NCBI GenBank assembly: GCA_964605515.1
Contig: CAZSDC010000001.1
Coordinates: 2,611-66,610 of the forward strand
Reading direction: 5' to 3'
DNA length: 64,000 nucleotides
Source of the DNA: an uncultured Chthoniobacter sp.
Lineage (GTDB): Bacteria; Verrucomicrobiota; Verrucomicrobiia; Chthoniobacterales; Terrimicrobiaceae
Below the pieces are notes generated by a model, which saw only the letters and a list, made by a program, of their open reading frames with translations, had not been told where the DNA came from and searched no databases. The position numbers and the translations under genes are program-made. The first letter of the stretch is position 1. Each line of letters opens with the position of its first letter. Shown here piece after piece: positions 13,301 through 38,159 of this stretch.

Positions 13301-14163
13301 AAATTGCTCTCGGGACAGTTCAGTTCGGGATGCGCTATGGCATCGCCAATACGGGGGGGCAGACCTCGCCGGATGAGGTCGGGGAGATACTGGCCTATGC
13401 CCGCAGCCAAGGGGTCGATACTTTGGATACGGCGATTGGCTACGGCGAGAGCGAGGCGGTGCTGGGCGGGCATGCGCTGAACGGCTGGAAAGTCATCTCT
13501 AAAATCGGATCTGTTCCAACGGACTGCAAGGATACCGCCGCCTGGGTGAAGGAGCGGATTCTTGGCTCCCTGTCCCGCCTGCGAATTCCGGCACTTTACG
13601 CCTTGCTGCTTCACTCCCCCCGTCAGCTTCTGGAAGCGAAGGGTGACGAGATTTACTCCGCTTTAAATTCGGCCAAAGAGGAGGGGATTATCGGGAAATT
13701 TGGCGTTTCCATCTATAACCCCCGTGAACTCGATATGTTAGTGGACCGATATCCGTTCGGAATTGTTCAGGCACCCTTCAACATCCTTGACCACCGGTTG
13801 GTTGACTCGGGTTGGATGGGCCGCCTGCAAGCGGCCGGAGTCGAGATTCATGTGCGATCCCTCTTCCTGCAGGGGCTCCTGCTGATGAGCGAATCGGAGC
13901 GACCAAAAACATTTCTACGGTGGAAGAACCTCTGGACGGCCTGGTCGGCCTGGTTGGAGCAAACTCACCAGAGCGCCCTCGAAGCCTGTCTGCGCTTTGT
14001 CTTGGCACATCCTGAAATTAACCGGGCGGTGGTCGGGGTGGATAGCCTGAAGCAGATTCAAGAAATCTGTGCGGCGACCTCCGGAGAAGCCCCCTCGGTC
14101 CCTTCCTCAATTCGATCTGACGATGAGGAATTGTTGAACCCCTCTTGCTGGTCCAATCTATGA
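13297..14163 (+). CDS. aldo/keto reductase
   Basis: GTG start overlaps the pseC stop. LGTVQFGMRYGIAN...GVDTLDTAIGYGESE is a typical AKR N-terminus. Confidence 0.8.
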   Translation: MKIALGTVQFGMRYGIANTGGQTSPDEVGEILAYARSQGVDTLDTAIGYGESEAVLGGHALNGWKVISKIGSVPTDCKDTAAWVKERILGSLSRLRIPALYALLLHSPRQLLEAKGDEIYSALNSAKEEGIIGKFGVSIYNPRELDMLVDRYPFGIVQAPFNILDHRLVDSGWMGRLQAAGVEIHVRSLFLQGLLLMSESERPKTFLRWKNLWTAWSAWLEQTHQSALEACLRFVLAHPEINRAVVGVDSLKQIQEICAATSGEAPSVPSSIRSDDEELLNPSCWSNL

Positions 14164-16187
14164 AAGTTGTCGGAATCGTTCAAGCCCGCATGGGGTCGAC
14201 CCGGTTTCCGGGAAAGGTGATGCAGCCGATCCATGGCGTTCCCATGATCGAGCTTCTCCTCCGCCGGTTGGCCACCTCTCGGACGCTTGACAAAATTCTC
14301 CTCGCGACTTCCGTGGATCCGTGCAACAAGCCCCTGGCCGAACATGCGCATAGCTTGGGATACGTCTGCTATCAAGGCAGTGAAAATGATGTCTTGGACC
14401 GGTATTACCAGGCCGCCAAACTATCTTCGGCGGATGTCGTTGTCCGGATCACCGGCGACTGTCCCTTGGTCGATCCGGCGCTCGTTGATGAAGTTGTCCG
14501 CGGCTTCCTGGCGGCAAAAGTTGACTATTTCAGTAACGTCGCCCCGCCGACCTATCCCGATGGACTCGATATTGAGGTCTTTAGCTTTGCGGCCCTCGAA
14601 AGAGCTTCCCGCGAAGCCTCGAAGAGTCTCGATCGCGAACATGTCACTCCCTACCTGCGTGAAGGCCCCTCGTTTGCGCGCTCATCAATACAGAACAACG
14701 AGGATCTTTCGAGCCTGCGCTGGACCGTTGATGAACCTGCGGATCTGGAGGTGGTCGCAAGAATCTTCGCTCATTTCTCTCCGGATATCTATTTCGCATG
14801 GCAAAGCGTGCTCAACTTGCAAAAAAACCACCCGGAAATTTTTCAAGCGAACCGGAACATTGCCCGCAACGAGGGGATGACGATTGGCACCGGGCAAAAG
14901 CTCTGGGAACGAGCCAAACGCGTCATCCCCGGAGGGAATATGCTGCTTTCCAAGCGCCCCGAAATGTTTCTTCCCGGGCAGTGGCCTGCGTATTTCAGCA
15001 AAGCCAAAGGCTGCAGGGTCTGGGATCTGGACGGCAAAGAATACATCGACATGTCCATCATGGGCATCGGCACCAATATTCTCGGCTACGGTCATCCGGA
15101 AGTGGACGATGCTGTCAGGAAGACCGTGGATGCCGGAAATATGTCCACTCTGAATTGCCCGGAGGAAGTCTATCTGATCGAGAAGCTGATCGAGATCCAT
15201 CCGTGGGCCGACATGGGACGGCTCGCCCGCTCTGGAGGTGAAGCCAATGCTATCGCCATCCGCATCGCCCGCGCTGCGACGGGCAAAGACAAGGTGGCCA
15301 TCTGCGGCTACCACGGTTGGCACGACTGGTATCTCTCGGCAAACCTGGGGGATGACGAAAATCTCGCAGGTCACCTCCTCCCGGGTCTCGATGCCAGAGG
15401 AGTTCCTCAAAACTTGCGGGGCACGGTATTTCCCTTCAACTATAATAACTTTGCAGAATTGGAGGCGCTGGTGAACGCCCATGACATCGGCGTCATCAAG
15501 ATGGAGGTTGTCAGGAACATGGGGCCCGAGGACAACTTCCTGCAGAAGGTCCGGGACTTGGCAACAGCACGGGGGATTGTTCTCATTTTCGATGAATGCA
15601 CCTCCGGATTCCGGGAAACATTCGGCGGGCTGCACAAAAAGTTCGGCGTCGAGCCCGATATGGCCATGTTCGGAAAGGCGCTCGGCAACGGCTACGCGAT
15701 CACCGCCACCATTGGAAAACGTGCGATCATGGAAGCTGCCCAATCCACCTTCATTTCCAGCACATTTTGGACCGAGCGGATAGGCCCAACTGCTGCCCTC
15801 AAAACACTGGAGGTCATGAAGAGGGAAAAATCCTGGGAGACGATCACCCGCACCGGTCTGGGAATCCGCGCGAAATGGCAGGAGATGGCGGACAAACACA
15901 GTCTTGCGCTGGATCACTGGGGCCTTCCGGCGCTCACCGGCTTTACAATCAAGAGCCCGAACTCTCTGGCCTACAAAACGCTCATCACCCAGAAAATGCT
16001 CGCCAAAGGCTTTCTTGTCGGTAACAGCGTCTATGTCTGCACCGAGCACACGCCGGAGGTGCTCGACCTATACTTCGATAGTCTGGACCCGGTATTCCGC
16101 CTCATCCGGGAGTGCGAGGAGGGGCGAAATATCCTGGATTTGTTGGAAGGACCGGTCTGCCACGGCGGGTTCAAGCGCCTAAACTGA
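14160..16187 (+). CDS. fusion protein: SpsF-like cytidylyltransferase domain + class-III (glutamate-1-semialdehyde aminomutase-like) PLP aminotransferase domain
   Basis: ATG at 14160 (ATGA overlap). N-domain has MKVVGIVQARMGSTRFPGKVM...RITGDCPLVDP. The C-domain starts at about aa 240: VIPGGNMLLSKRPE...ARSGGEANAIAIRIARAATG...IFDECTSGFR...FGKALGNGY (PLP lysine). Confidence 0.8.
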   Translation: MKVVGIVQARMGSTRFPGKVMQPIHGVPMIELLLRRLATSRTLDKILLATSVDPCNKPLAEHAHSLGYVCYQGSENDVLDRYYQAAKLSSADVVVRITGDCPLVDPALVDEVVRGFLAAKVDYFSNVAPPTYPDGLDIEVFSFAALERASREASKSLDREHVTPYLREGPSFARSSIQNNEDLSSLRWTVDEPADLEVVARIFAHFSPDIYFAWQSVLNLQKNHPEIFQANRNIARNEGMTIGTGQKLWERAKRVIPGGNMLLSKRPEMFLPGQWPAYFSKAKGCRVWDLDGKEYIDMSIMGIGTNILGYGHPEVDDAVRKTVDAGNMSTLNCPEEVYLIEKLIEIHPWADMGRLARSGGEANAIAIRIARAATGKDKVAICGYHGWHDWYLSANLGDDENLAGHLLPGLDARGVPQNLRGTVFPFNYNNFAELEALVNAHDIGVIKMEVVRNMGPEDNFLQKVRDLATARGIVLIFDECTSGFRETFGGLHKKFGVEPDMAMFGKALGNGYAITATIGKRAIMEAAQSTFISSTFWTERIGPTAALKTLEVMKREKSWETITRTGLGIRAKWQEMADKHSLALDHWGLPALTGFTIKSPNSLAYKTLITQKMLAKGFLVGNSVYVCTEHTPEVLDLYFDSLDPVFRLIRECEEGRNILDLLEGPVCHGGFKRLN

Positions 16188-16192
16188 ACCGG

Positions 16193-17266
16193 ATGCACAT
16201 CGCCTTCCGTGTTGACGCTTCCCGCCAGATCGGCACCGGCCACTTCATGCGGTGTCTCACCCTGGCGGATGCATTGAAGGAACGTGGTGCTTCCTCGGGA
16301 TTTCTCTCCCGGAATCTGCCGAAACATCTGCGAGGACTGCTGGATCTAAGGGGGCACGCTCTCCTCCCGCTAGCTCCAGGCGACGACGCTCCCGACGGTG
16401 ATTTGCTTCACTCCACGTGGCTGGGAACCTCACAGCAAGCGGACGCCCAGAACTGCCTCGGAGCGCTTCGCGAAATGCGCTGCGACTGGCTCGTCGTTGA
16501 CCACTACGCGCTCGATGGTCGCTGGGAAACCCCGCTCCGCCAAAAGGCGGATAAAATTTTTGCCATCGATGATATTGCCGATCGCAACCACGACTGCGAC
16601 CTTCTGCTGGATCAGAATTATTACGCGGACATGCACGGGCGCTACCGAGAACGATTGCCAAAATCCTGCACTCCCCTTCTAGGGCCAAAATATGCTATTC
16701 TCCGCAAAGAATTCATCAACCTCCATGCCAACTCTAGGCCTCGTCCGGGACATGTCGAGCGAGTGTTTATTTTCCTCGGCGGCGTGGATTTAGACAATTA
16801 TACAGGCGTCGTCATGCGAGCGCTTGATAACTTTCGGCGCAAAAACCTGTCTGTGGACATTGTGCTAGGGGCCCAGCATCCCTGCAGAAAAGAGATTTGT
16901 GGTGAATGCGAGCGAAAACAGTATTCGGTGCATGTCCAGACTGACCGAATTGGAGAACTGATGAAAGCGGCGGATCTGGGGATAGGGGCGGGAGGCTCAT
17001 CAACATGGGAGAGATGCGCTGTGGGTCTTCCCACTCTCGTCGTCGCTGTCGCCGCAAACCAGATTCCTACGGCCATTGACACGGCAAAGATCGGCGCGAC
17101 AAATTATGCGGGCTGCGCCGGCGATGTCTCTGCAGAGTTGCTGGCACAGGAAATTGACCGATCTTTTGATTCGTCCTGGATTAATCGCGCCTCTAGGTTT
17201 TGCCTTGATCTCGTCGATGCCCTTGGCGTCCAGCGAATTCTAGAACAAATGAAATGCTATGAGTGA
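16193..17266 (+). CDS. pseG: UDP-2,4-diacetamido-2,4,6-trideoxy-beta-L-altropyranose hydrolase, PseG
   Basis: Internal ATG at 16193. MHIAFRVDASRQIGTGHFMRCLTLADALKERG is the PseG N-terminal signature. GT-B-like C-terminus has GAGGSSTWERCAVGLP. Confidence 0.8.
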   Translation: MHIAFRVDASRQIGTGHFMRCLTLADALKERGASSGFLSRNLPKHLRGLLDLRGHALLPLAPGDDAPDGDLLHSTWLGTSQQADAQNCLGALREMRCDWLVVDHYALDGRWETPLRQKADKIFAIDDIADRNHDCDLLLDQNYYADMHGRYRERLPKSCTPLLGPKYAILRKEFINLHANSRPRPGHVERVFIFLGGVDLDNYTGVVMRALDNFRRKNLSVDIVLGAQHPCRKEICGECERKQYSVHVQTDRIGELMKAADLGIGAGGSSTWERCAVGLPTLVVAVAANQIPTAIDTAKIGATNYAGCAGDVSAELLAQEIDRSFDSSWINRASRFCLDLVDALGVQRILEQMKCYE

Positions 17267-18026
17267 AGACCCCATCTTGAATCATTGGAACCAGCGCGCG
17301 GCGCTTGCGGAGAAATCCGGCAGCGACGACGTTATCGCCAAGGAGATCGAAACGAATGCGATTTCCAACCATATCCGGGATGGGATGGTCGTGGCGGAAT
17401 TTGGCTGCGGGAACGCGGCGACGGCTGTCAATTTGCGAGCCCGGCATGACATCGAACTTTATTGCTTTGATTTTTCTCCAGCGATGATCGAGTTGGCTAA
17501 GGCTCGGGTCGAGCAAGCCGGGATGACGAAGCATATCCACTTGGAGGTGTGCGATATTAGAAAAGAGCCAAAACAGCCACTAAATTTTGACGCCATATAT
17601 ACCGAGCGGATGATTATCAATCTGCCAGACTGGAATACGCAGGCGAATGCAATTAGATATCTTACAAGAAACCTCAAATCCGGCGGGACATATCTCATGT
17701 GTGAAAACAGCGCCAATGGCCTTGATGAGCTGAATGCGCTACGTGCTTCGGTCGGGCTTGAGCCCATTGCTCCTCCCTGGCATAACTTATATCTGATAGA
17801 CGAACTCGTAGCCTCGCTTGAGTCACCTGAAGCAGAGCTTGTCGATGTCGAGATGTTCAGCGCGACCTACTATTTCTTAAGTCGAGTTGTTAATGCATCC
17901 CTGGCCGCCCGCGAGGGGAAGTCTCCATCATATGATGCCCCGGTCAACAGTCTGGCCCTTCGACTGCCTCCCATGGGCCAATGCGCGCAAGGCAAACTGT
18001 GGGTCTTTCGCAAAATCCATGCCTGA
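17259..18026 (+). CDS. class I SAM-dependent methyltransferase embedded in the pse operon
   Basis: VVAEFGCGNAATAVNL (motif I). Overlaps both neighbouring genes by 8 nt. Confidence 0.7.
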   Translation: MSEDPILNHWNQRAALAEKSGSDDVIAKEIETNAISNHIRDGMVVAEFGCGNAATAVNLRARHDIELYCFDFSPAMIELAKARVEQAGMTKHIHLEVCDIRKEPKQPLNFDAIYTERMIINLPDWNTQANAIRYLTRNLKSGGTYLMCENSANGLDELNALRASVGLEPIAPPWHNLYLIDELVASLESPEAELVDVEMFSATYYFLSRVVNASLAAREGKSPSYDAPVNSLALRLPPMGQCAQGKLWVFRKIHA

Positions 18027-19143
18027 GCACAATTTTATGGGTGGATTCCTGCTCTCGGGCCGCCGCGTTGGAGCCGGCAACCCTCCGTTTGTCATCGCGG
18101 AGATGTCTGGCAACCACAACCAGTCCCTTGAAAGGGCTCTGGAGATTGTTGAAGCCGCTGCGCGGACGGGCGCGCACGCCATCAAGATCCAGACTTACAC
18201 GCCTGACACGATGACGATCGATCTCGACGAGCGGGAATTTCACATCGGTGACCCCGACAGCCTGTGGGCGGGCGAGTCGCTTTATAATCTCTACAAGAAA
18301 GCCTATACGCCGTGGGAGTGGCACGCTCCGATTTTTGCTCACGCCCGAGAGCTGGGAATCATTCCATTCAGCTCGCCCTTTGACGAGACGGCCGTCTCAT
18401 TTCTGGAGGAGTTGGAAGCGCCGTGCTATAAGATCGCATCATTTGAGAATACCGACATTCCGCTAATCCAGTGTGCGGCTTCCACGGGCAAACCGCTTAT
18501 CATATCAACAGGCATGGCGACTGCGGAGGAGCTGGACGATACCGTCCGTGCGGCGCGGCAGGCCGGGTGCCAAGACCTCATCCTCCTGAAATGCACAAGC
18601 ACCTACCCGGCCGAGGCTTTGAACACCAATCTGAATACGATCCCTGACTTGTGCAGTCGGTTCGGCTGCGAGGCAGGAATCTCCGATCACACGATGGGGA
18701 TCGGTGTATCGGTGACCGCTGTCGCTCTGGGAGCCTCAGTAATCGAGAAGCATTTTACGCTCAACCGGGCAGATGGTGGCGTAGACAGCGCGTTTTCGAT
18801 GGAACCGGACGAGATGTCACAGCTTGTTGCGGAGGCAAACCGTGCGTGGCAAGCTCTAGGAATGGTGAGTTATGGGCCGACCGAAGCAGAAAAACAATCC
18901 CTCCAATACCGCCGCTCGCTTTATGTCGTCAAGGACATGAAAGAGGGTGAGATTTTCACAAAAGTAAATGTCCGGGCGATCCGCCCGGGGCTGGGGCTGC
19001 CGCCAAAGTTTCTGGAAAGACTACTCGGGAAAAAGGCCACAGGCGCTATCAAGCGCGGCACGGCGCTTGCTCTCGGAATGGTCGCGTGGGAAAGCGGTTC
19101 GCTTGCCGAAGAAGTGCCGATAACCGGAGGACAGGGAAACTAA
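18019..19143 (+). CDS. pseI: pseudaminic acid synthase (NeuB family), PseI
   Basis: Internal ATG at 18019. PPFVIAEMSGNHNQSLERALEIVEAAARTGAHAIKIQTYT and a C-terminal SAF-like VRAIRPGLGLPPKF...IKRGTAL. Confidence 0.9.
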   Translation: MPEHNFMGGFLLSGRRVGAGNPPFVIAEMSGNHNQSLERALEIVEAAARTGAHAIKIQTYTPDTMTIDLDEREFHIGDPDSLWAGESLYNLYKKAYTPWEWHAPIFAHARELGIIPFSSPFDETAVSFLEELEAPCYKIASFENTDIPLIQCAASTGKPLIISTGMATAEELDDTVRAARQAGCQDLILLKCTSTYPAEALNTNLNTIPDLCSRFGCEAGISDHTMGIGVSVTAVALGASVIEKHFTLNRADGGVDSAFSMEPDEMSQLVAEANRAWQALGMVSYGPTEAEKQSLQYRRSLYVVKDMKEGEIFTKVNVRAIRPGLGLPPKFLERLLGKKATGAIKRGTALALGMVAWESGSLAEEVPITGGQGN

Positions 19144-19148
19144 CAATT

Positions 19149-20369
19149 ATGAATGAACTGACACGCTGTAGCAAATGTGTGCTACCGGAGACGCACGAGA
19201 CGATCCATTTTGATGATAAGGGAGTTTGCAGCGTCTGCCGCCAGCAAGAGCACAAGCAGGACCAGGTCAACTGGCCGGAAAGAAAGAAGGATCTCGATCA
19301 CCTCATAGAGCAATACCGAGGCAAATATGATTACGATTGTCTCGTACCGTTCAGCGGCGGGAAGGACAGCACATGGACGCTCTATTACCTGATGAAGGAA
19401 TACGGCATCAAGCCGTTGGTGGTCCGTTTCGACCACGGGTTCCTGCGTCCCAACCTTCATGAGAACACGACCAAAGTTCTCCGGCACCTCGGGGCGGACT
19501 TCTTGACATTTACCCCGAACTGGAAGGTGGTTCAGAAGCTCATGCTCCAGGCCTTTCTGGAGAAGGGAGACTTCTGCTGGCACTGCCATACGGGCATCTT
19601 CTCCTACCCGATGTGGGTGGCTCTCCGCTACAATGTTCCCCTCATATTCTGGGGCGAACCCTCCGCCGAATACACCTCCTACTACAGCTATGACACTCCG
19701 GAGGAGGTTGATGAGAAGCGGTTCAACCGATATGTTAATCTCGGAATCAACGCGGAGGACATGTTTGTGCGTTTGAATGGGCGGGTCGAGATGCGGGATC
19801 TGAAACCATTCAGCTATCCTCCTCTCAAGGAGCTCCGGAAGATCGGCTACCGGTCGGTCTGCCTCGGCTCATACATCCAGTGGGATGTGAAGGTTCAGTC
19901 GAAGATCATCATGGACGAACTCGCATGGAAAGGCGACGAGGTCGAGAATGTCCCGCCCGGCTACAACTACGAGAAGATCGAGTGCTACATGCAGGGCGTC
20001 CGTGATTACATCAAATACATCAAGCGCGGTTACACCCGTCCCGCCCACCTCGCAACCATCGACATCCGGAACGGCCGGATGACCCGTGAGGAGGGGATGG
20101 AGATGGTGGAGCAATATGAAGGGAAACGGCCGCCCAGCCTTGATCTTTTCCTGAAATTCGTCGGCCTGACGGAAGAGGAATTCCATTCCATCGCCATGTC
20201 GCACATGGTCTCGCCCTACCAGCATGATCCATCAAAGATCACACCCGGAAAGAAGCTCCATGACTTTGACGAATGGAGCCAGGAGGGTGCGATGCCGCGG
20301 GATGAGGCGCTAAAGCAGATTGCCAGCCGAAACGCACCGGACGTCCAATCGGAATTGAAGCCGGAGTGA
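19149..20369 (+). CDS. N-acetyl sugar amidotransferase (PseA/WbuX-like, PP-loop ATPase)
   Basis: Internal ATG at 19149. CSKCVLPETHETIHFDDKGVCSVCRQ zinc ribbon plus the LVPFSGGKDSTW PP-loop. Confidence 0.85.
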   Translation: MNELTRCSKCVLPETHETIHFDDKGVCSVCRQQEHKQDQVNWPERKKDLDHLIEQYRGKYDYDCLVPFSGGKDSTWTLYYLMKEYGIKPLVVRFDHGFLRPNLHENTTKVLRHLGADFLTFTPNWKVVQKLMLQAFLEKGDFCWHCHTGIFSYPMWVALRYNVPLIFWGEPSAEYTSYYSYDTPEEVDEKRFNRYVNLGINAEDMFVRLNGRVEMRDLKPFSYPPLKELRKIGYRSVCLGSYIQWDVKVQSKIIMDELAWKGDEVENVPPGYNYEKIECYMQGVRDYIKYIKRGYTRPAHLATIDIRNGRMTREEGMEMVEQYEGKRPPSLDLFLKFVGLTEEEFHSIAMSHMVSPYQHDPSKITPGKKLHDFDEWSQEGAMPRDEALKQIASRNAPDVQSELKPE

Positions 20370-20983
20370 TCGGAATCGTCCATTGCGGCTCCGGAAACAT
20401 TGCCTCGGTGGCCAATGCGGTAGACCATCTCGGCGGAGATGCGGTAGTGATCAAATCTCCCTGTGAGTTGGACGATTGTTCGAGCGTGATCCTTCCCGGC
20501 GTCGGTTCGTTTTTTGACGTCATGGGAAAGCTCCGGCAGGAGGGCTTCGAGGCAGCCTTGCAGAGAAACGTGGTGGAGCGCAGGAAGCCGACGCTCGGGA
20601 TCTGTATTGGAATGCAGTTGATGGCGGCGCTCGGGACCGAGGGGGGGCAATGCGGCGGCCTGGGTTGGTTCGGAGGCACCGTGGAAAAGCTCCATTCCGA
20701 AACCCCCTCGGATCGCATCCCGCATGTCGGGTGGAACCAAGTCCTTCTCCGCCAGCCGCATGCTCTTCTCAATGGAGTGCCCGAGCAGGCCGACTTTTAC
20801 TTTGTTCACAGCTACACGATCAGAATGGAAGCGTCTGCCGATGTCATCGCCATGTGTGACTATGCCGACGGTGTCACCGCCATTGTTGGAAGGGACAATA
20901 TTTTTGCCACGCAATTTCATCCGGAGAAAAGCCAGGATTACGGCCTGAGGATTCTGGAGAACTTTCTGGATTGGCATCCGTAG
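20366..20983 (+). CDS. hisH: imidazole glycerol phosphate synthase HisH-type glutamine amidotransferase (glycan-locus paralog, WbuY-like)
   Basis: GTG start (GTGA overlap). GICIGMQLM (nucleophile Cys) and ATQFHPEKS. Confidence 0.9.
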   Translation: MIGIVHCGSGNIASVANAVDHLGGDAVVIKSPCELDDCSSVILPGVGSFFDVMGKLRQEGFEAALQRNVVERRKPTLGICIGMQLMAALGTEGGQCGGLGWFGGTVEKLHSETPSDRIPHVGWNQVLLRQPHALLNGVPEQADFYFVHSYTIRMEASADVIAMCDYADGVTAIVGRDNIFATQFHPEKSQDYGLRILENFLDWHP

Positions 20984-20985
20984 CC

Positions 20986-21759
20986 ATGCTCAAACGCAGA
21001 CTGATTCCCAAGTTGCAGCTCAAGCGGGCCGCGACGGATGGCCGCTACGAATTGGTCACAACGATCGCGTTCGACAAGATGTTGAAGATCGGTGAGCCGA
21101 TCTCCCAGGCGAAGATCTATCAGGCCCAAAACGTCGACGAGTTGATTTTCGTGGATTTGGATTCCGCCGGACCAAGTCCGGAACTTACTGCTCTGGTCCA
21201 GCGGACGACGCAGAATATTTTTATGCCGATCACCATCGGCGGTGGTGTGCGGACAGTTGAGGATTTCCATGTCCTGCTGTCCAGTGGGGCGGATAAGGTG
21301 GGCATCAATGCTGCTGCGGTGAGTGATCCCCGCCTCATCTCCGACGCAGCCCGCATTTTCGGCGCCCAATGCGTGGTCGTGAGTATGGACTTCCGGAAGA
21401 TTGATGGGGGCTACCGGATCTTTGTTGATCGGGGCCGGGGCGACACCGGGAGGGACTTGATCGATTGGGCGAGGGAATGCGAAAGCCGGGGAGCGGGCGA
21501 AATCCTCATGACGAGCGTCGATCGCGACGGATCCAAGTCAGGGCTGGAACTGGATGCCATCCGCCAGGTCACGCGGACCGTGAGTATCCCGGTGATCGCC
21601 GGTGGCGGATGCGGCGTCGCCAGCCACTTCGTTGATGGGTTAAAATCCGGGGCCGATGCGATTGCGGCGGGCACATATTTCTGCCACCAAGATCAAAGCC
21701 CTATGCAGTGCCGGGCGCACATCAAGAACGCCGGCTTCCCGATCCGGCTGCACCTATGA
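20986..21759 (+). CDS. hisF: HisF-type cyclase subunit (acetamidino-modification paralog, WbuZ-like)
   Basis: ATG at 20986 (the track ORF starts at TTG 20971). RLIPKLQL, DELIFVDL, GGGVRT, GADKVGINAA, MTSVDRDGSKSGLEL and IPVIAGGGCG. Confidence 0.9.
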   Translation: MLKRRLIPKLQLKRAATDGRYELVTTIAFDKMLKIGEPISQAKIYQAQNVDELIFVDLDSAGPSPELTALVQRTTQNIFMPITIGGGVRTVEDFHVLLSSGADKVGINAAAVSDPRLISDAARIFGAQCVVVSMDFRKIDGGYRIFVDRGRGDTGRDLIDWARECESRGAGEILMTSVDRDGSKSGLELDAIRQVTRTVSIPVIAGGGCGVASHFVDGLKSGADAIAAGTYFCHQDQSPMQCRAHIKNAGFPIRLHL

Positions 21760-22313
21760 GCGACGAACAAAACTTGAAAGACCATCAAGTCCTGCTCGTT
21801 GGTGACAAGATAATTCTGCGGGATTTCCGGCTCGAAGACATTACTCAGGATTATATCGACTGGATGAATGATCCGGTGGTTGTTCAATTCACCGAAAGCC
21901 GATTTCACCCCCACTCAATCGAAAGTATCAGCGATTTTGTTGAGCAGTGTCGCCGAAGTCCGTGTGACCTCCTGCTCGGCATCTTCTCAGAAAATGACGG
22001 ACTACACTTGGGGAATATCAAATTAGGTCCTATTAATTCTTATCATAGAATTGCCGACATTGGTTTGATTGTCGGAAGAAAAACCCATTGGGGGAAAGGT
22101 GTTGCCAGTGAGGCGATCGCGCTGGTGCGGGATTATGCATTTCAGGGCCTGGCGCTCCATAAAGTGACCGCATCCTTTTATGAAGGCAACACAGGTTCTG
22201 AAAAAGCCTTTTTAAAAGCAGATTTTGTGAGGGAAGGAGTCCGGAACATGCATGTGAAGTATGAGGATCGATGGATGAACGTGATTGAACTGGGTTGCAT
22301 AAACGCCAAGTAG
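21756..22313 (+). CDS. GNAT-family N-acetyltransferase (PseH candidate)
   Basis: Internal ATG at 21756 (ATGA overlap). ILRDFRLEDITQDYIDWMNDP and HWGKGVASEAIALVRDYAF (acetyl-CoA binding loop). Confidence 0.75.
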   Translation: MSDEQNLKDHQVLLVGDKIILRDFRLEDITQDYIDWMNDPVVVQFTESRFHPHSIESISDFVEQCRRSPCDLLLGIFSENDGLHLGNIKLGPINSYHRIADIGLIVGRKTHWGKGVASEAIALVRDYAFQGLALHKVTASFYEGNTGSEKAFLKADFVREGVRNMHVKYEDRWMNVIELGCINAK

Positions 22314-22326: not shown

Positions 22327-22807
22327 ATGAACGTCATGGTTAACAGTTTGTACCCCATGTAGCATTATCATTATGTCGCGGAGCTCAACTACATGGAAAA
22401 GCATCTTTCCAAGGACGATACTATGACAGTGCTACATTAGGACGCGGACCGGCATGCGCCTCGCGCTCGCACGCCAAGTTGCCACGCAGGGCTGCGACCT
22501 TCTCAACGAAAAGCTTCTGTCCCACAACCGCGATGGCGTGTACGGCTTTTCCTCTGAAATGAAGGCGAAACAGCTTGTTGCCCTCATCGGCTGGGAACCG
22601 CGCAGCATCGTCACTTTCCGCGATGCCTCCGGAACAGAGTCGCTTGCTTTGAAGAGCCTCTTCCAACATGAGTGCATCAAACGCATCATCCTCTTCACCG
22701 GCAGCCATAACATTTTCCACAGTCACGCCGCCGCCAATATCGACCTGACTTTGCAGGCCTATCGCACGGCGACTGTGCAGGCCATCAAGAACGACGACGC
22801 CAGTTAA
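22327..22807 (+). pseudogene. truncated, stop- and frameshift-disrupted paralog of the N-terminal third of the 23867-25411 gene
   Basis: From ATG 22327 the translation is MNVMVNSLYPM*HYHYVAELNYMEKHLSKDDTMTVLH*DAD, compared with MNILFTGLYPMWHCHYVAELNYIEKHLSLGDRVTLLRCDAD in the intact gene (26/41 identical). In-frame TAG codons lie at 22360 and 22438. Similarity then continues in another frame (ORF 22454-22807): SSEMKAKQLVALIGW vs ISEMKETHVAGFDIG, and DLTLQAYR vs DLFLDSYR. Confidence 0.7.
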
Positions 22808-23866: not shown

Positions 23867-25411
23867 ATGAATATTTTATTCACAGGTCTCTATCCGATGT
23901 GGCACTGCCACTATGTTGCGGAGCTCAATTATATAGAAAAACACCTCTCTCTGGGTGATCGCGTCACGCTTCTCCGCTGCGATGCGGATCAGTTGAGCTG
24001 CGAGGCCAATCCCAAGCGAGAGCTTGCCCATTGCCTGCGCTGCATAGGAATCCGCCAGCACGGGGAAAGCTTGCTTTCATCGAAGGTCAAGACCGCGCCC
24101 CTGATTATCGAGGACTTCAAAAATGCCGTGCCGACGAAATTCGAAGTCAACGTGTCCACGATTTCTGAGATGAAGGAAACTCATGTCGCAGGGTTTGATA
24201 TTGGCAGCGCGGTGTATTCGTCGCTTGTGGATCGAACGATGAGCGCGACTCCGGATCTCAATATACACCGCGATCTTGCCCGCGATCTATTTTTAGATTC
24301 CTACCGGATCTACCTGAGTGCAATTCGTTACCTGGAGGAGGGGCGCTACGACCGCGTCTATGTTTTCAACGGGCGGTACGCCGGTGCCCGACCGTGGATC
24401 CGCGCTTGTGAAAAGAAGAAGGTGTCCTTTTTTACGCATGACAAATTTTCATCCCCCGATCGGCCGACGCGATTTGACTGTGCGTTGCCGCACATCCCCG
24501 CCCAGTATCCCCGACGGATCCTTGATTTCTGGGAAAGCGCTGAAGGCAATTCTGCGATCGTCGACCAGGCCCGCGACTTCTTTGAAGAACGACCGAAGGG
24601 AAAGCTGACCGGATGGGTCTCTTTTGTTGATCTTCAGGAAAAAGACATGCTGCCGGCGGGGTGGGATAGCTCGAAAAAGAATATTGCGATATTTTCCAGC
24701 ACGGAGTGGGAGTTCGTAAGCATTAAGGAGTTGATGGAAAACGCTCTTTTCCCATGTCAGGAGGACGCCTGTCACTATCTGATTACCGAGGTTCACAAAA
24801 GGGATCCCGAAGTCTGTTTCTATATAAGAATCCACCCCAACTCATCCGCCGATAAAGGGCGCTGGTGGGAATTGCCATCAATTCAAAATCTTGCGCATTG
24901 CACGATTATCCCCCCTGAGAGTTCGATATCGAGCTATGCGCTGCTCCAGGCTTGTGACACCTCGGTCACTTATATCTCCACGATCGGCGTGGAAGCAACT
25001 TATTGGGGCAAGCCTTCGATTATTTTGGCACAAGCCATTTATTGGGGGCTTGATGCGGTGTATGAACCAAAGACTCGGGAGGAGGCATTGGAGATGCTGT
25101 GTTCCGATCTGGTTCCCAAGCCGCAAACCAACGCCCTGAAGTATGCCGCCTTCTTGCGATGTGGTGGCGACGAGTTGCCGCACTCCGAGGCGGTGAACTA
25201 CTACACGATGACCTTTAAAGGCCAGATTCTGGAGGCGCGTCAGGAGGTCCATGCCTGGCTGGGAGCTTGCGAGAAGCGCTCGCCCGCTTCTGGATGGAAG
25301 AAATGGCTTCGGGATAAACGAGACCGGCGGCACCTGAAAACGCTTTGGAAAGAATGTGATGGTTGGTTTGCGGCGGAGTCATCCGGCAAGGAATCGACTG
25401 CCGGGAGATAG
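23867..25411 (+). CDS. KpsS/Capsule_synth-like GT-B protein with an N-terminal Cys4 cluster; candidate nonulosonate (Pse) transferase
   Basis: Internal ATG at 23867. LLRCDADQLSCEANPKRELAHCLRC forms a Cys cluster. The C-half NIAIFSSTEWEF...FYIRIHPNSS...SSYALLQACDTSVTYISTIGVEATYWGKPSIILAQAIYWGLD resembles the KpsS/KpsC capsule-synthesis C-lobe as I recall it. The CDS call is firm; the function is inferred. Confidence 0.55.
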   Translation: MNILFTGLYPMWHCHYVAELNYIEKHLSLGDRVTLLRCDADQLSCEANPKRELAHCLRCIGIRQHGESLLSSKVKTAPLIIEDFKNAVPTKFEVNVSTISEMKETHVAGFDIGSAVYSSLVDRTMSATPDLNIHRDLARDLFLDSYRIYLSAIRYLEEGRYDRVYVFNGRYAGARPWIRACEKKKVSFFTHDKFSSPDRPTRFDCALPHIPAQYPRRILDFWESAEGNSAIVDQARDFFEERPKGKLTGWVSFVDLQEKDMLPAGWDSSKKNIAIFSSTEWEFVSIKELMENALFPCQEDACHYLITEVHKRDPEVCFYIRIHPNSSADKGRWWELPSIQNLAHCTIIPPESSISSYALLQACDTSVTYISTIGVEATYWGKPSIILAQAIYWGLDAVYEPKTREEALEMLCSDLVPKPQTNALKYAAFLRCGGDELPHSEAVNYYTMTFKGQILEARQEVHAWLGACEKRSPASGWKKWLRDKRDRRHLKTLWKECDGWFAAESSGKESTAGR

Positions 25412-25415
25412 ACCC

Positions 25416-26234: not shown

Positions 26235-26248
26235 ATCGTCTTGCGACC

Positions 26249-27316
26249 ATGGCTCCCGTATTACTTCTTTTGTTCAACCGCCCCGACCTTACGGCTGGGC
26301 TAATCTCGTCTCTGCGCCGAGCGGCTCCACCCCGTATTTTCATCGCTATCGATGGGCCGCGGGCGGGTGTGGAGGGCGAGGCAGAGCGGGTTGAGGAGGT
26401 TAGGTGCCTCGCTGAGGCAATTGATTGGCCATGCGAAAAGCGCTGGCTCATACGCGATGGAAATCTCGGCTGCGGTCTCGCCGTGAGCGGCGCGATCACC
26501 TGGTTCTTCGATCAGGTGGATGAAGGGATAATACTCGAGGACGATTGCCATCCCGATCCGACATTTTTTGAGTTTTCCAACTCAATGCTTGACCGGTATC
26601 GAGATGATGCCCGCGTTTTTTTAATTTCTGGAACGAGTCTTTTGCCGTCCAGCATCGCAACCACCGAGCCATACTTTTTCTCAAAATATATGGGCGTGTG
26701 GGGATGGGCGACATGGCGGCGCGCGTGGAAGACCTACGACTATAGCCTTTCCACGCAGAGCGCCGATGAGTGGAAAAGAATTATTGTAGCTCACAACGAA
26801 AATGCCGTGGAGCGCCGATACTGGCTGCACATTCTGGAATTGATGCTTGAGGGAAAGATCGACACATGGGATTTTCAGGTCCAGTTTTCTGCGTGGAAGA
26901 AGAATTCCTTGCACGTGACCTCGTCGCGCAATTTGGTGGAAAACTTCGGGTTTCGCGGTGACGCAACCCATACTAGAACTCCCTCTCCTTTGGCTGCGCG
27001 CCATACTATCCCTAATCCGGCTCCCTATCCGGACTTGCCTGTTGTTGTGGATACCATTCTCGACCGTATTGTATTTGGCGAGAAACTCCATGCTTCTCTC
27101 GAGCTCGCCGAATGGCTCTTTGGCGGCGGCCGGGAGCGCGAATGCGCAAACAAAGTGGAGCGGCTTTCTGCAGAATTGCTCGAAGCCCGCGGACACCTCG
27201 GCCAGGCTGCTGCCGACATCGCGCTAAAGGCCGAACATATTCACGCAATGAAATCAGAAATCGCCGGCTATTATGGTTTTTCCGGGGCTCTCCAGTGCCT
27301 GCGTAAAATGTTCTAA
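26249..27316 (+). CDS. GT-A-fold glycosyltransferase (HlpA/GNT-I-like) with a C-terminal coiled coil
   Basis: APVLLLLFNRPDLTAGLISSL, IILEDDCHPDPTFFEF (EDD), WGWATWRRAW. Tail: KVERLSAELLEARGHLGQAAADIALKAEHIHAMKSEI. Confidence 0.6.
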   Translation: MAPVLLLLFNRPDLTAGLISSLRRAAPPRIFIAIDGPRAGVEGEAERVEEVRCLAEAIDWPCEKRWLIRDGNLGCGLAVSGAITWFFDQVDEGIILEDDCHPDPTFFEFSNSMLDRYRDDARVFLISGTSLLPSSIATTEPYFFSKYMGVWGWATWRRAWKTYDYSLSTQSADEWKRIIVAHNENAVERRYWLHILELMLEGKIDTWDFQVQFSAWKKNSLHVTSSRNLVENFGFRGDATHTRTPSPLAARHTIPNPAPYPDLPVVVDTILDRIVFGEKLHASLELAEWLFGGGRERECANKVERLSAELLEARGHLGQAAADIALKAEHIHAMKSEIAGYYGFSGALQCLRKMF

Positions 27317-35198: not shown

Positions 35199-37256
35199 AT
35201 GAATGTCAGATCCGATAATCGCAGAGCACTCTGGTTTGTGCTTGGGCTAACTCTCTTGCTGCTCGCGGTGGCAGTCAGCTTCTCCTTTTCCCGCGGAAGG
35301 CTCCAGTATGAGATGGACTACGAGGATATCATCACTCATATCGACGGGCTGAAGCGATGGAGGGATCTCAGCGAAGGGGGAGTTTGGAAGTTTTTCACCG
35401 GTTACGCGGCAAATCCCCCTCACTGTCCGTTGCACAGCTTTACTGCGGCGGTCGGGTTTATGATATTCGGCGTTCATGACTGGGCACCATATGTTCTCAA
35501 CGGCGTCTTTCTTTTCGGATTTCTCCTGCTTGCGCAACGCTTGACCAAAGGGCTTGGTTTGGTTGCCTCATGCGTTGCCGTATTAGGTGCTGCGCTTGTG
35601 CCCCTCTCATTCCAGACCATCCACCAGTTTCGTCCGGACTTTCCATGTGCGTTGGCCACACTATGGGGAATGCTTGTTTATCCGATGCGCCTTGGGCGGG
35701 ATTTCGAAAAGCGCGCGGGGATTGCCGGCCTCTTCTTCGGGCTGGCCCTTCTAGCAAAGCCCCCGTTTTTTCCATTCACCCTCGCGATGGGGGCGCTGCC
35801 CTGGCTTATTAGCGTGGCTGCTTCTTATAGGGCGGCTTCGGGCTGGACGGGAGCCTGGTGTGCTATTCGGCGAAGCTGGCCTTTCTTTGCTGCGACAGCA
35901 ATCGTGGCCGGCCCACACTACTTTGTCGCCTGGAAAAAGATTCTGGAATACATCCAGTTGAACCAGTTCGGAGAAAATGCCCATGTCTGGAAAATGACGG
36001 GCGGACTGGACTTCCAGATTGTTTATCACGTGTTTGGATACAGCGGGATATTCATGCTTGGAAATGCTGTCTGGATCCTTATCGCACTCGTCCTGGCGGG
36101 GTTCGCTCTCAGTTTTGTTCTTCGCCGTCGGGCCTCCGACAACTGTTTGAGGTTCATTTACCTCTTTGCCGTAACCCTGTGGGCTTGGATCTTTATTGCG
36201 TGGAACCCCCACATGAACCCATTCTTCGGGCTGACGTTCCAGTATGCCCTCGTCCTTTGCGGGATGTTTGTCCTGGCTTGGGTGACCAACCTCATTTTGC
36301 TTTCAGGAAGGAGGGGGATGCTGGTTTTTCCGGCTGCTTTGGTTGCGGCCTTGGCTTGCATGGCGGTTCCATTCCGGGAGCATGACCAGAAATTCACGAA
36401 TGCGGATCCCGAACTCCACAACTTTGCAAGGGATCTCCCCCGCGAGGTTTATCGTCGTCTGATGAAGTGGCGCTGGCATTCCGATGCTGGCTACACCCTG
36501 CTCTCGACCTACGGTATCGTCTCCTCTCACCGCCTTCAGTGGATGGCGGACAAGAACCGCCAAAAATTCCAGTTCTTTGGTGTCCCGTTCTGGCCGATCG
36601 ATCGGGTGGTTGAGCTGTTCGACCAGGAAACCAAAATCCACGACCGGATAGATTTCGCCGTGGTCAGCGAACCCGGTGCCGAAGGTGTCTTTGAAGAATT
36701 GCCAAATGCCGACACAACCGGAGGCTTGATCGAATGGCTGAATGGCAAAAAGGAATACCGTGCCGTCGAAACGATTCTCACACCGTCCGGCAAAAAATAT
36801 TTTCTCTACATGGCGGCTCCAAATTTTGGCGTGTTTGAAAATGTGTCTGGACTTGGACCGAAAACCGGTCCGGTCAATCTGGCCGGAAAGCCCATGGTCA
36901 AACATGTTTTGGCTTCTGACGTTGCTCTGGAATTCGCATCACCGACATCCGGAGAAGGATTGCTGGAGTTTTCGTTTCGCGCGAATGATCCCATCGCCAT
37001 GATCAAGGTCGAGGTGAATTCGCGCGAGGTCGCCGTAATTGACACGGGCCGGCTCGACCCTCAGTCTGATTTCCACACAATCGATTCCAAGGTCGCACTT
37101 GTGGAGGGAAAAAATCCGGTTAAGATCCGGATGTATGACCGTGGTGGAAACATGGTCCAGAACCCGTCAATGATCATCCGTCGTTTGAGGATTTCTCCAC
37201 CCGGAGATGCTTCCCCTCTTGATGACATTCTGCGTAAAATTAACAATCAAAAGTAA
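35199..37256 (+). CDS. GT-C-like polytopic membrane protein (paralog family A) with a C-terminal beta-rich domain of about 230 aa
   Basis: Internal ATG at 35199. GRLQYEMDYEDIITHIDG after TM1, then CPLHSFTAAVGFMIFGVHDWAPY. The C-terminus (about aa 450-685) is soluble. Confidence 0.55.
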   Translation: MNVRSDNRRALWFVLGLTLLLLAVAVSFSFSRGRLQYEMDYEDIITHIDGLKRWRDLSEGGVWKFFTGYAANPPHCPLHSFTAAVGFMIFGVHDWAPYVLNGVFLFGFLLLAQRLTKGLGLVASCVAVLGAALVPLSFQTIHQFRPDFPCALATLWGMLVYPMRLGRDFEKRAGIAGLFFGLALLAKPPFFPFTLAMGALPWLISVAASYRAASGWTGAWCAIRRSWPFFAATAIVAGPHYFVAWKKILEYIQLNQFGENAHVWKMTGGLDFQIVYHVFGYSGIFMLGNAVWILIALVLAGFALSFVLRRRASDNCLRFIYLFAVTLWAWIFIAWNPHMNPFFGLTFQYALVLCGMFVLAWVTNLILLSGRRGMLVFPAALVAALACMAVPFREHDQKFTNADPELHNFARDLPREVYRRLMKWRWHSDAGYTLLSTYGIVSSHRLQWMADKNRQKFQFFGVPFWPIDRVVELFDQETKIHDRIDFAVVSEPGAEGVFEELPNADTTGGLIEWLNGKKEYRAVETILTPSGKKYFLYMAAPNFGVFENVSGLGPKTGPVNLAGKPMVKHVLASDVALEFASPTSGEGLLEFSFRANDPIAMIKVEVNSREVAVIDTGRLDPQSDFHTIDSKVALVEGKNPVKIRMYDRGGNMVQNPSMIIRRLRISPPGDASPLDDILRKINNQK

Positions 37257-37263
37257 ACATCGC

Positions 37264-38127: not shown

Positions 38128-38159
38128 ACGAGTCTTTAAAAAACACAGCCTTCCATTTT

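Follow-up and report, generated by a model that had tools for sequence, protein, structure and literature searches.

The window studied here, a stretch of 64,000 nucleotides from an uncultured Chthoniobacter sp., carries the gene of a 514-residue protein, P0001, which would be a glycosyltransferase using a CMP-activated derivative of pseudaminic acid (Pse) as donor. The probability of this reading is put at about 0.7. The enzyme would belong to a new family related to GT107, GT99 and GT118, the last being compared by description only. A first-pass annotation had put the protein forward as a KpsS-like candidate for Pse transfer. The fold, the homology, the supply of the donor and the synteny support the plausibility of this candidacy, but the resemblance to KpsS is confined to the fold and to the CMP site. 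The family is uncharacterised but widespread, with about 1,850 clusters at 50% identity (E <= 1e-30).

The frame of 514 codons announced on the forward strand is intact, and its translation is free of stops from 23867 to 25411. A longer frame using a TTG start at 23756 was rejected, because the first residues of the homologues coincide with the M-x-[IV]-L-F-T-G position. The features of the gene and of its product considered below are the following.

23867..25411, + strand: gene of P0001, a 514-aa GT-B protein, candidate CMP-nonulosonate (Pse-derivative) glycosyltransferase (reading frame, AF2 model, fold matches)
23909..23911, + strand: H15, invariant His that follows strand beta1 and opens helix alpha1 (43-homologue alignment)
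23978..24043, + strand: Cys4 cluster C38-x6-C45-x10-C56-x2-C59 of the N-lobe, lying after strand beta2 and before helix alpha2, putative site for a structural metal (Zn or Fe) (conservation)
24359..24376, + strand: Y165-V-F-N-G-R170 motif of the N-lobe
24437..24442, + strand: H191-D192, mostly H-E in relatives, placed by hhalign on the invariant Glu of the Capsule_synth ExGFxRS motif
24698..24715, + strand: S278-T-E-W-E282-F at the QXXXD site, with E282 as candidate nucleophile (hhalign sets Q on S278 and the nucleophilic D on E282)
24833..24841, + strand: H323-P324-N325, HP motif of CMP-sugar-dependent GT-B enzymes, invariant, aligned to the HP of KpsC and Capsule_synth
24965..25018, + strand: T367...I384 (ISTIGVEATYWGKPS), nucleotide-binding S..G.EA..GKP motif, aligned to KpsC and WbbB
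25241..25354, + strand: C-terminal helices, residues 459-496, rich in Lys, Arg and Trp (model helices, sequence)

The AF2 model of P0001 displays a GT-B fold (pLDDT 93.9, pTM 0.91). The KpsC modules (GT107; E. coli and Thermosulfurimonas dismutans; PDB 6MGB, 6MGC, 6MGD, 8FUW, 8FUX) are its best structural matches, both with Foldseek (6mgb/8fux, E 7.9e-9) and in an exhaustive VIA search (6mgd/6mgb, Z 14.9 over 264-279 residues, rmsd 4.1-4.2). In the latter search, generic GT-B enzymes come below KpsC, at Z 10-12. The beta-Kdo transferase domain found at the N-terminus of WbbB (GT99; PDB 5FA0, 8CSB-8CSF), with Z 10.2, is also a weaker match than KpsC. The KpsS/KpsC-like fold that had been proposed from the letters is therefore recovered in a high-confidence model, and P0001 has the dual Rossmann (GT-B-like) architecture of GT99, GT107 and GT140. 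Sequence identity with KpsC is nevertheless only 12-16%. A single-sequence phmmer search of P0001 against PDB sequences returned chance-level matches only. With the Pfam model PF05159 (Capsule_synth), the check recommended at the outset, P0001 alone stays under the threshold (E 0.05, 13.5 bits against a gathering threshold of 20 bits, over model positions 166-270 only), whereas its relatives and profile-profile comparison speak for homology. Indeed, 28 of the 43 relatives match the model (E <= 0.01), seven of the ten fused relatives exceed the cut-off (25-39 bits), and hhalign aligns the family profile with five genuine members of Capsule_synth from the same phylum over 248 columns (probability 97.8%, E 1e-12). 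Thus, the P0001 family is a remote homologue lying at the edge of the PF05159 model. When compared to the PDB, the family profile retrieves KpsC (E 1.2e-4 to 8.6e-4, spanning the HP and S..G.EA motifs) and WbbB (E 1.3e-3 to 7e-3, with the S..G.EA motif at E 1.3e-3).

The two motifs of the C-half on which the initial assignment was based, FYIRIHPN (residues 318-325) and TYISTIGVEATYWGKPSI (residues 367-384), are exactly the segments aligned by HMMER to KpsC and WbbB. Within them, H323-P324 and S371..E376-A377 align to KpsC, WbbB and Capsule_synth, and E376 and A377 are invariant across the 43 homologues. P0001 therefore carries the HP and S..G.EA elements of GT99, GT107 and GT140. The HP motif is also common to GT38, GT52 and GT80 (PMC5420450). 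The situation is different for the QXXXD motif, which GT99, GT107 and GT140 keep without exception (PMC10148158; PMC12887879) and which is invariant in the five same-phylum Capsule_synth proteins. In P0001, the aligned residues are S278 and E282, and the family consensus at this site is S-[ST]-[ED]-x-E. E282 is invariant in the 43-homologue alignment; among 60 independently collected genomic homologues, 59 have Glu and one has Asp. Because QXXXD is absent, P0001 falls outside the beta-Kdo transferase families GT99, GT107 and GT140, and its mechanism may differ from theirs. In the N-lobe, 57/60 genomic homologues have Glu and 3/60 have Asp in the column of residue 192. In KpsC-N, the general base is Glu66, a Glu of the N-terminal domain (PMC10148158), to which residue 192 would be equivalent. 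H15, present in all homologues whose N-terminus was captured, is a candidate acceptor-side catalytic or binding residue. Finally, Y165, F167, N168, G169 and R170 are conserved in 60/60 genomic homologues.

A C-x6-C...C-x2-C cluster had been noticed in the N-lobe. Its four cysteines, C38, C45, C56 and C59, are invariant in the 43 homologues, which are 32-63% identical, and the other 12 Cys of P0001 are unconserved. The four residues are also found in 58 of the 60 genomic homologues. Of the two exceptions, one is N-terminally truncated; in the other, from Babeliales, the four cysteines have been lost jointly. As judged from these alignments, the cluster is more than a chance arrangement. The corresponding block is modelled with a pLDDT of 93-97. 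In the hhalign comparison, canonical Capsule_synth proteins show nothing equivalent to this region; the region is carried by a family-specific extension of the N-lobe of about 160 residues, which KpsC does not have. P0001 also consists of a single module, as opposed to the dual-module KpsC. The pattern of conservation suggests that the cluster is probably a structural metal site. A precedent exists in the autotransporter heptosyltransferase TibC, where an 'iron-finger' with a tetrahedral Cys4 site is structural and required for oligomer assembly, not for catalysis (PMC4358343). TibC is homologous to P0001 in the GT-B fold only; its Cys4 site holds Fe(III) in a C-lobe insertion, whereas the putative site of P0001 is situated between beta2 and alpha2 of the N-lobe. 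The latter would add a second case of a GT-B enzyme equipped with a metal finger.

A presumed supply of the donor is encoded in the surroundings of the gene.

11109..22313, + strand: pse-type operon, presumed donor supply (Pfam, NCBIfam)
22327..22452, + strand: decayed N-terminal fragment of a P0001 paralogue, 26/42 identical to residues 1-42
22866-23813: 315-aa reading frame between the pse operon and the P0001 gene
26249..27316, + strand: 355-aa GnT-I/POMGnT1-like GT-A with an EDD motif, the family's most conserved neighbour
37207..39011, + strand: Wzm-like ABC-2 permease and short Wzt-like ATPase (PF01061, PF00005)

The operon encodes PseB, PseC, an AKR, a cytidylyltransferase-aminotransferase fusion, PseG, a methyltransferase, PseI, a WbuX/HisH/HisF amidotransferase trio and a GNAT. 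NCBIfam scores are 275 bits for PseG (cut-off 153.55), 507.5 for PseI (340.25) and 349.6 for WbuX (203.2). With PseG and PseI above their equivalog cut-offs, and with PseB, PseC and a CMP-sugar cytidylyltransferase domain, the attribution of a CMP-nonulosonate pathway to this locus holds. The P0001 gene belongs with the pse genes to one co-directional array, but it does not follow the operon immediately, as had been written: the GNAT gene ends at 22313, and the paralogue fragment and the 315-aa frame intervene. A promoter and terminator scan of 22000-28500 gave sites not above the count in shuffled sequences. The genome, 82.6% complete, has a single NeuB-family gene, its one nonulosonate (NulO) synthase, and P0001 is its sole match to Capsule_synth or BFO_1060. 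The reported lack of a Maf-type or sialyltransferase-like gene extends to this genome, where Maf, GT38, GT42, GT52 and GT80 have no match. In particular, the Maf model PF01973 matches neither P0001 (E <= 10) nor the genome (E <= 0.1); PF07388, PF06002, PF07922 and PF11477 match neither P0001 (E <= 10) nor the genome, the genome scans being weak for PF06002 and PF11477, whose controls gave no match. At this completeness a further transferase could be missed, and many other glycosyltransferases are encoded in the same island. Among them, the GT-A at 26249..27316 is modelled with a pLDDT of 86.5 and resembles POMGnT1 (Foldseek, 3e-11) and GnT-I (1.2e-9). A complex prediction of P0001 with this neighbour scored 0.01 against a mark of 0.32, a value with no bearing on binding either way. 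The Wzm/Wzt pair is proposed from sequence as the export route of the glycan; Wzm/Wzt homologues head clusters containing pse genes and a P0001 homologue in five other loci (L008, L021, L030, L050 and L062).

Beyond this genome, at least seven phyla contain relatives of P0001 that adjoin nonulosonate operons, of the pse type or other. Such synteny occurs in Verrucomicrobiota, Planctomycetota, Bacteroidota, Nitrospirota, Myxococcota and Pseudomonadota, and a plasmid of Picosynechococcus shows a like arrangement of the family gene and a NulO operon. A recurrent gene order is GT-A, P0001 homologue, PseB, PseC, PseF, PseG, PseI. A homologue of the GnT-I-like GT-A adjoins the family member in 39 of 62 genomic loci. 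A NulO synthase lies within 10 kb in 24 of these 62 loci, and in 14 of the 27 with full flanks; over this distance, a NulO gene is absent from about half of the latter. NeuB is present genome-wide in 9/10 carrier genomes lacking a NulO gene within 10 kb, a figure made uninformative by the 9/14 control genomes that are also positive. Co-occurrence statistics are precluded in the phylum, since 300 sampled genomes contain only two or three full-length homologues. Donor-specific clades were looked for in a quick tree of 60 homologues and rejected: Pse and non-Pse contexts are intermixed, so that membership of the family cannot reveal donor specificity. The closest genomic relative (locus L001, 55% identity) has a NeuB/LegI-like synthase nearby. 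As relatives also adjoin non-Pse NulO synthases, 'nonulosonate transferase family' is the better name. Some relatives are fused to GT2, GT4 or methyltransferase domains, which places the family module in glycan assembly lines.

Several characterised enzymes help to interpret these data. KpsC shares with P0001 the HP and S..G.EA..GKP motifs and acidic residues at the positions of the nucleophile and of the N-domain Glu, but it has QXXXD where P0001 has SxxxE, and its genomic association is with Kdo pathways whereas that of the P0001 family is with NulO pathways. The functional precedent is KpsS1 (GT118) of Acinetobacter baumannii, a retaining Pse5Ac7Ac transferase with CMP-Pse as donor, related to GT99 and KpsC (PMC12887879). 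The KpsS-like precedent from Acinetobacter invoked in the first reading is therefore a sound one. KpsS1 belongs to the same superfamily as P0001, as far as its published description allows comparison. It shares about 30% identity with E. coli KpsS; P0001, by contrast, is undetectable against Capsule_synth by single-sequence search, and no Cys4 cluster is reported for KpsS1 in the literature examined. In Tannerella forsythia, the addition of Pse or Leg derivatives requires members of the Tanf_01245/TFUB4_00887/BFO_1060 family, as established by knock-out and complementation (PMC5420450). The model of this family (NF046086) is matched weakly but consistently by the P0001 family in the HP-containing C-domain: P0001 reaches 29.6 bits, short of the cut-off of 200, over model positions 198-291 of 365 only, and 38 of the 43 relatives match weakly (best E 4.3e-9). 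The TagB-like region and the DXD and D/E-D/E-G motifs of the Tannerella proteins were not found in P0001. KrkA (GT140) of E. coli K13, a retaining Kdo transferase, operates by double displacement (PMC12887879). KrkA and P0001 are deeply divergent members of the same structural class; KrkA keeps a QTLND motif with invariant Q and D, unlike P0001, and is absent among the fold matches listed. As to WbbB, it also has QXXXD where P0001 does not, and both proteins occur in ABC-transporter-dependent glycan systems. Like WbbB, the relatives P0136, P0131 and P0124 carry additional GT modules by fusion. WbbB adds a chain-terminating Kdo. By analogy, a capping role may be imagined for P0001.

In the model that we favor, cytoplasmic P0001 would transfer the CMP-activated pseudaminic acid derivative produced by the upstream operon to a growing surface glycan, and the NulO-containing glycan would then be exported by the Wzm/Wzt transporter of the same island. 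In the C-lobe, CMP would be held by H323-P324 and by the S..G.EA..GKP motif including E376, as in KpsC and WbbB. E282 would sit at the site of the nucleophilic Asp of QXXXD, and H191-D/E192 at that of the invariant Glu. Accordingly, the likeliest chemistry would be a retaining double displacement resembling that of KpsC and KpsS1, with a Glu nucleophile in place of Asp; on this analogy, the configuration is probably retained. The Cys4 of the N-lobe would most likely bind a structural Zn (or Fe) and shape the acceptor side. The GnT-I-like GT-A partner would probably make or extend the acceptor.

Other readings can be envisaged. The one that fares best, although it is improbable, is an initiating or polymerising enzyme of the KpsS kind, which, instead of adding one residue to a growing glycan, would attach the first NulO to an anchoring lipid or assemble a run of poly-NulO. 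P0001 has its fold and motifs in common with KpsS and KpsC, ABC-2 transporter genes lie near the family in several loci, and the basic, Trp-rich C-terminal helices could bind the membrane; they form a possible membrane-association or interaction tail in the model. However, the annotated part of the window contains no export genes of the KpsE/KpsD type, and the constant GnT-I-like GT-A partner as well as the GT2 and GT4 fusions better fit a mid-chain or terminal step. A little less probable still is a transferase of beta-Kdo, or of another octulosonate, similar to KpsC, KpsS or WbbB and using CMP-Kdo for a linker or cap, the pse genes being close only as part of a shared polysaccharide island. 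All the closest solved folds are indeed beta-Kdo transferases, with CMP-binding motifs in common, and the ABC-2 exporter of the locus is of a sort that serves Kdo-capped or Kdo-linked glycans. Against this stand the replacement by SxxxE of the QXXXD motif kept in GT99, GT107, GT140 and the same-phylum Capsule_synth proteins, the specific adjacency of NulO biosynthesis operons in seven phyla, and the existence of a Pse transferase, KpsS1, in the superfamily.

Two further readings appear very unlikely. P0001 might be a GT-B-fold protein other than a transferase, either a nucleotide-sugar 2-epimerase or a hydrolase, akin to NeuC, PseG or LegG, or an enzyme modifying CMP-NulO within the biosynthetic pathway. 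The family gene travels with biosynthesis genes, 13 of the 43 relatives weakly match PF02350 (Epimerase_2; best 1.4e-6), and UDP-GlcNAc 2-epimerases rank after KpsC in fold searches. Their Z of ~10-11, with rmsd 8.5-10 A, is nevertheless well under the 14.9 of KpsC; the locus already has a distinct PseG that scores over the equivalog cut-off; the HP motif and the residues at the nucleophile position fit transferases; and the fusion partners are glycosyltransferases and methyltransferases, not pathway enzymes. Equally, a generic GT-B enzyme using a UDP-, GDP- or dTDP-sugar unrelated to the neighbouring NulO, as might be suggested by the many NDP-sugar GT-B matches at Z 9-12 and by the annotation of the Picosynechococcus homologue as 'glycosyl transferase, group 1', is disfavoured by the lack of any GT1 or GT4 Pfam match in P0001 at E <= 10, by the HP motif and Capsule_synth homology, which indicate a CMP-sugar donor, and by the synteny with CMP-NulO pathways.

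To our knowledge, few NulO transferases have been identified beyond Maf proteins, the T. forsythia enzymes and KpsS1/GT118, and the literature searched for Pse transferases in Verrucomicrobia contained no relevant report. If P0001 transfers a Pse derivative, its family would account for NulO transfer in many environmental phyla, where pse or leg operons occur without a known transferase. More tentatively, and with some doubt, it may be imagined that P0001 founds a new CAZy-level family of metal-finger CMP-nonulosonate transferases with the Glu of SxxxE as nucleophile, forming with the GnT-I-like GT-A, and often a methyltransferase, a conserved module that adds a terminal NulO cap to Wzm/Wzt-exported glycans. 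Were the terminal-cap reading true, this module would do with NulO, in Verrucomicrobiota, Planctomycetota, Bacteroidota and Cyanobacteriota, what WbbB does with its chain-terminating beta-Kdo. The SxxxE-for-QXXXD swap offers a direct test of whether the double displacement of beta-Kdo transferases also operates, with Glu as the nucleophile, on sugars of nine carbons. Two culturable organisms give access to the family, [Synechococcus] sp. NIES-970 (plasmid1), which has the homologue NIES970_27450, and Draconibacterium aestuarii Z1-6, and new Pse transferases would be useful in the synthesis of Pse glycoconjugates.

Finally, the paralogue fragment at 22327-22452 contains two in-frame TAG codons, at the positions of W12 and C38. 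A reassignment of TAG was considered for them and rejected: five of the 39 genes of the window terminate with TAG, which is therefore a true stop.

The 514-aa protein that the first-pass annotation proposed as a pseudaminic acid (Pse) or other nonulosonate (NulO) transferase is supported as such a candidate by its fold, its homology, its synteny with CMP-NulO genes and the fusions of its relatives. Our confidence in a glycosyltransferase for CMP-NulO, in this locus a Pse derivative, is about 0.7. A large glycan island of co-directional genes fills the window, and within it the gene has the following surroundings.

Features of the island
Upstream: PseB and PseC
Upstream: aldo-keto reductase
14145-16187, upstream: CTP_transf_3 cytidylyltransferase fused to a class-III aminotransferase
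Upstream: PseG (275 bits, cut-off 154)
Upstream: methyltransferase
Upstream: PseI (507 bits, cut-off 340)
Upstream: WbuX/HisH/HisF amidotransferase trio
Upstream: GNAT
22327-22452: decayed N-terminal paralogue fragment of the gene, 26/42 identical to residues 1-42
23867-25411, + strand: the candidate transferase, 514 uninterrupted codons
26249-27316, + strand: 355-aa GT-A neighbour
Downstream: two unassigned proteins
Downstream: several GT2 genes
Downstream: PMT_2/GT-C-like membrane proteins
Downstream: Wzm/short-Wzt ABC-2 exporter
Downstream: more GT2, GT9 and GT4 genes

Since 42 homologues begin at the same M-x-[IV]-L-F-T-G, the start is placed at the ATG at 23867; their N-termini rule out the TTG at 23756, where a longer frame opens. 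The translated ORF contains the three sequence features quoted earlier, FYIRIHPN (residues 318-325), TYISTIGVEATYWGKPSI (residues 367-384) and the N-lobe cluster C38-x6-C45-x10-C56-x2-C59. The gene had also been placed immediately downstream of the pse operon, which needs correction: between the end of the GNAT gene, at 22313, and the transferase gene lie the paralogue fragment and a 315-aa ORF without family assignment. Two in-frame TAGs replace W12 and C38 in the fragment. These are genuine stops, because TAG closes 5 of the 39 genes of the window. After a frameshift, the fragment may possibly extend to about 22807.

Judging from the upstream gene set, the locus very probably makes a CMP-activated Pse carrying acetamidino and/or methyl decorations. 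The earlier claim of a CMP-nonulosonate product is supported by PseB, PseC, the cytidylyltransferase domain, and PseG and PseI, both above their cut-offs. The reported lack of a Maf-type or sialyltransferase-like gene extends to the full 3.49-Mb assembly of 328 contigs, which is 82.6% complete: no Maf, GT52, GT42, GT38 or GT80 model matched there, the absences being weak for the two models that matched no control genome. This genome has one NeuB-family gene, and the protein is its only Capsule_synth match and its only appreciable match to BFO_1060_trans (NF046086). Within the fusion at 14145-16187, the aminotransferase half is glutamate-1-semialdehyde aminomutase-like. Full-length fusions 70-74% identical to it, preceded by an aldo-keto reductase, adjoin homologues of the transferase gene in two other loci, L003 and L041; in a third, L055, the fusion beside the homologue is 38% identical. 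The recurrence points to a conserved Pse-tailoring sub-module.

The AlphaFold2 model of the protein is very confident (pLDDT 93.9, pTM 0.91) and has a GT-B fold, in agreement with the KpsS/KpsC-like C-half noted before. Foldseek ranked KpsC modules first (E 7.9e-9). When 48,161 chains were searched exhaustively with VIA-align, both T. dismutans KpsC modules came on top (Z 14.9, 264-279 residues, rmsd 4.1-4.2), clear of generic GT-B enzymes (Z 10-12) and WbbB (10.2). Since both searches put KpsC first, neither a non-GT fold nor the lack of a GT107-like fold, the outcomes named beforehand as contrary to the assignment, was found.

At the sequence level, the proposed PF05159 (Capsule_synth) search was positive for the family and not for the protein alone, which scored below the cut-off (E 0.05, 13.5 bits, cut-off 20). 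Likewise, BFO_1060_trans gave 29.6 bits (cut-off 200), and the single sequence had no real match among PDB sequences. In an alignment of 43 database relatives, PF05159 matches 28 (best E 6.6e-8) and BFO_1060_trans 38 (best E 4.3e-9). The profile of this alignment finds KpsC (8FUW, E 8.6e-4) and WbbB (5FA0, E 7e-3) in the PDB, and a profile of the C-domain only does better (1.2e-4 and 1.3e-3). What aligns in these matches is precisely HP, the 'vS..Ll' segment and S..G.EA..GKP. Homology to CMP-ulosonate transferases is accompanied by a conserved CMP-binding half-site. Despite near-silence in family libraries, the protein is a member of a large family: 577 matches, nearly all unnamed or 'hypothetical', in a database clustered at 90% identity, and 1,851, 4,442 and 8,328 clusters at E <= 1e-30, <= 1e-10 and <= 1e-3 in a 50%-identity representative library. 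By those families' own criteria it falls outside PF05159, NF046086, GT99, GT107 and GT140. It represents an uncharacterised homologous sister family with an altered nucleophile motif and an extra putative metal site.

The retaining beta-Kdo transferases WbbB (GT99), KpsC (GT107) and KrkA (GT140) absolutely conserve QXXXD, the Asp of which forms the covalent sugar adduct (PMC10148158; PMC12887879). Five bona fide Capsule_synth proteins from same-phylum genomes (61-214 bits on PF05159) all have it, 33-38 residues ahead of HP. Profile-profile alignment with these five (97.8% probability, E 1e-12, 248 columns, positions 162-422 of the 43-relative alignment) places the Q at S278, the nucleophilic D at E282, the invariant Glu of ExGFxRS, which would be equivalent to the general base Glu66 of KpsC, at D192, and HP at H323-P324. 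The family signature in place of QXXXD is S-[ST]-[ED]-x-E-[FY]. E282 is invariant among the 43 relatives; of 60 separately gathered genomic homologues, 59 have Glu there and one has Asp. The D192 position is Glu in 57 of the 60. At each of the two catalytic positions of the double-displacement enzymes, the family thus still has an acidic residue. H15, Y165-x-F-N-G-R170, H209, R242, R321 and Y357 are also conserved in all or nearly all of the 60.

The C-lobe would bind the CMP-Pse derivative, and attack on C2 by E282 would form a covalent NulO-enzyme intermediate. E/D192 (or H15/H191) would then activate an acceptor hydroxyl to resolve this intermediate by displacement, with net retention, as demonstrated for KpsS1 (PMC12887879). 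Retention via E282 is proposed tentatively, at somewhat under even odds; E282 might instead serve as the base of an inverting mechanism. The putative Cys4-metal knuckle would stabilise an enlarged acceptor-binding N-lobe, basic C-terminal helices would keep the enzyme at the inner membrane, and by analogy with the Kdo of WbbB it could add a chain-terminating cap.

The unusual N-lobe cluster proved real. Its four Cys are invariant among the 43 relatives, where the other 12 Cys of the protein are not conserved, and all four occur in 58 of the 60 genomic homologues, one of the remaining two being N-terminally truncated. The homologue of a Candidatus Babeliales MAG (L053, 10001-11347) is the only one with all four replaced (D, T, K, S), and it keeps H15 and E282; such all-or-none loss is as predicted for a single, non-catalytic metal site. 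Strand beta2 (residues 32-37) and helix alpha2 (53-68) flank the cluster, which is modelled at block pLDDT 93-97. The first ~160 residues, Cys4 included, have no counterpart in the five Capsule_synth proteins aligned. TibC is a GT-B enzyme with a structural Cys4 site, but there the cluster is in the C-lobe and binds Fe(III) (PMC4358343), whereas here it is in the N-lobe and its metal is putative. A structural Zn/Fe site is a reasonably probable assignment. The 1.4-Mb Babeliales genome has a NeuB-family gene (G308:C2:69928-70650), just beyond the fetched flank and ~11 kb upstream of the homologue if contig C2 carries both.

The family is linked with CMP-NulO biosynthesis and with other glycosyltransferases. 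A scan of one genome per species yielded 62 loci, which were then searched with the window proteins. A NulO synthase lies within 10 kb of the homologue in 24 of them (14 of the 27 with full flanks), usually accompanied by PseB, PseC, PseF and PseG and often directly adjacent. The order GT-A, transferase, PseB, PseC, PseF, PseG, PseI recurs, and this synteny spans Verrucomicrobiota, Planctomycetota, Bacteroidota, Nitrospirota, Myxococcota and Pseudomonadota. On plasmid1 of [Synechococcus] sp. NIES-970, a 31.8% identical homologue labelled 'glycosyl transferase, group 1' comes just after a complete pse operon. In this plasmid-borne NulO glycan cassette of a cultured cyanobacterium (L069, AP017960.1 5796-31127), a formyltransferase and an LmbE-like deacetylase are among the products of the pse operon, after which come an MsbA-like ABC exporter and, further downstream, a PIN/AbrB toxin-antitoxin pair, the homologue, and FkbM and type-11 methyltransferases. 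Draconibacterium aestuarii Z1-6 (L012) is a further cultured carrier. At eight loci the synthase close by shares just 27-33% identity with PseI, a level that points to NeuB/LegI-type enzymes, and a quick tree intermixes Pse and non-Pse contexts. The link of the family is therefore to NulO sugars at large, and for the window it is the local operon that assigns Pse as the sugar.

As its most constant neighbour the family has a homologue of the GT-A encoded at 26249-27316, which lies immediately next to the transferase gene in 39 of the 62 loci. Its alignment shows N-R-P...D-G-P...L-E-D-D...W-G-W, with L-E-D-D invariant. The window copy has no Pfam match; its model (pLDDT 86.5) retrieves POMGnT1 (3e-11) and GnT-I (1.2e-9), so that it is a bacterial GT13-like (GnT-I/POMGnT1-like) GT-A, which would work just before or just after the transferase. 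This copy also ends in about 90 residues that are predicted to form a helical tail. The transferase module occurs in natural fusions with GT2 (P0124), with GT4 (P0131), with several methyltransferase types (P0121, P0125, P0139, P0050) or, in the 1,607-aa P0136, with GT2, methyltransferase and GT4, a multidomain architecture similar to that of WbbB. These architectures argue that the module acts as an assembly-line glycosyltransferase rather than as a pathway enzyme, and those with methyltransferases hint at a methylated terminal residue. TPR is also among the domains joined.

In the phylum of the window the family is rare, with 2-3 full-length copies among 300 sampled genomes, including one interrupted by many stops, yet it occurs across many phyla, a spread that fits mobile, fast-turning-over surface-glycan loci, as does the decayed fragment in the window. 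One same-phylum copy (G112:C32:10239-11660) has eight in-frame stops (2 TGA, 2 TAG, 4 TAA) and is a pseudogene, another sign of rapid turnover. Finally, several large membrane proteins are encoded at 31618-37256 and 43832-45469, two with weak PMT_2 (GT-C) matches and two without family; periplasmic-face GT-C enzymes beside a Wzm/Wzt ABC-transporter pathway make an unusual mix for one island.
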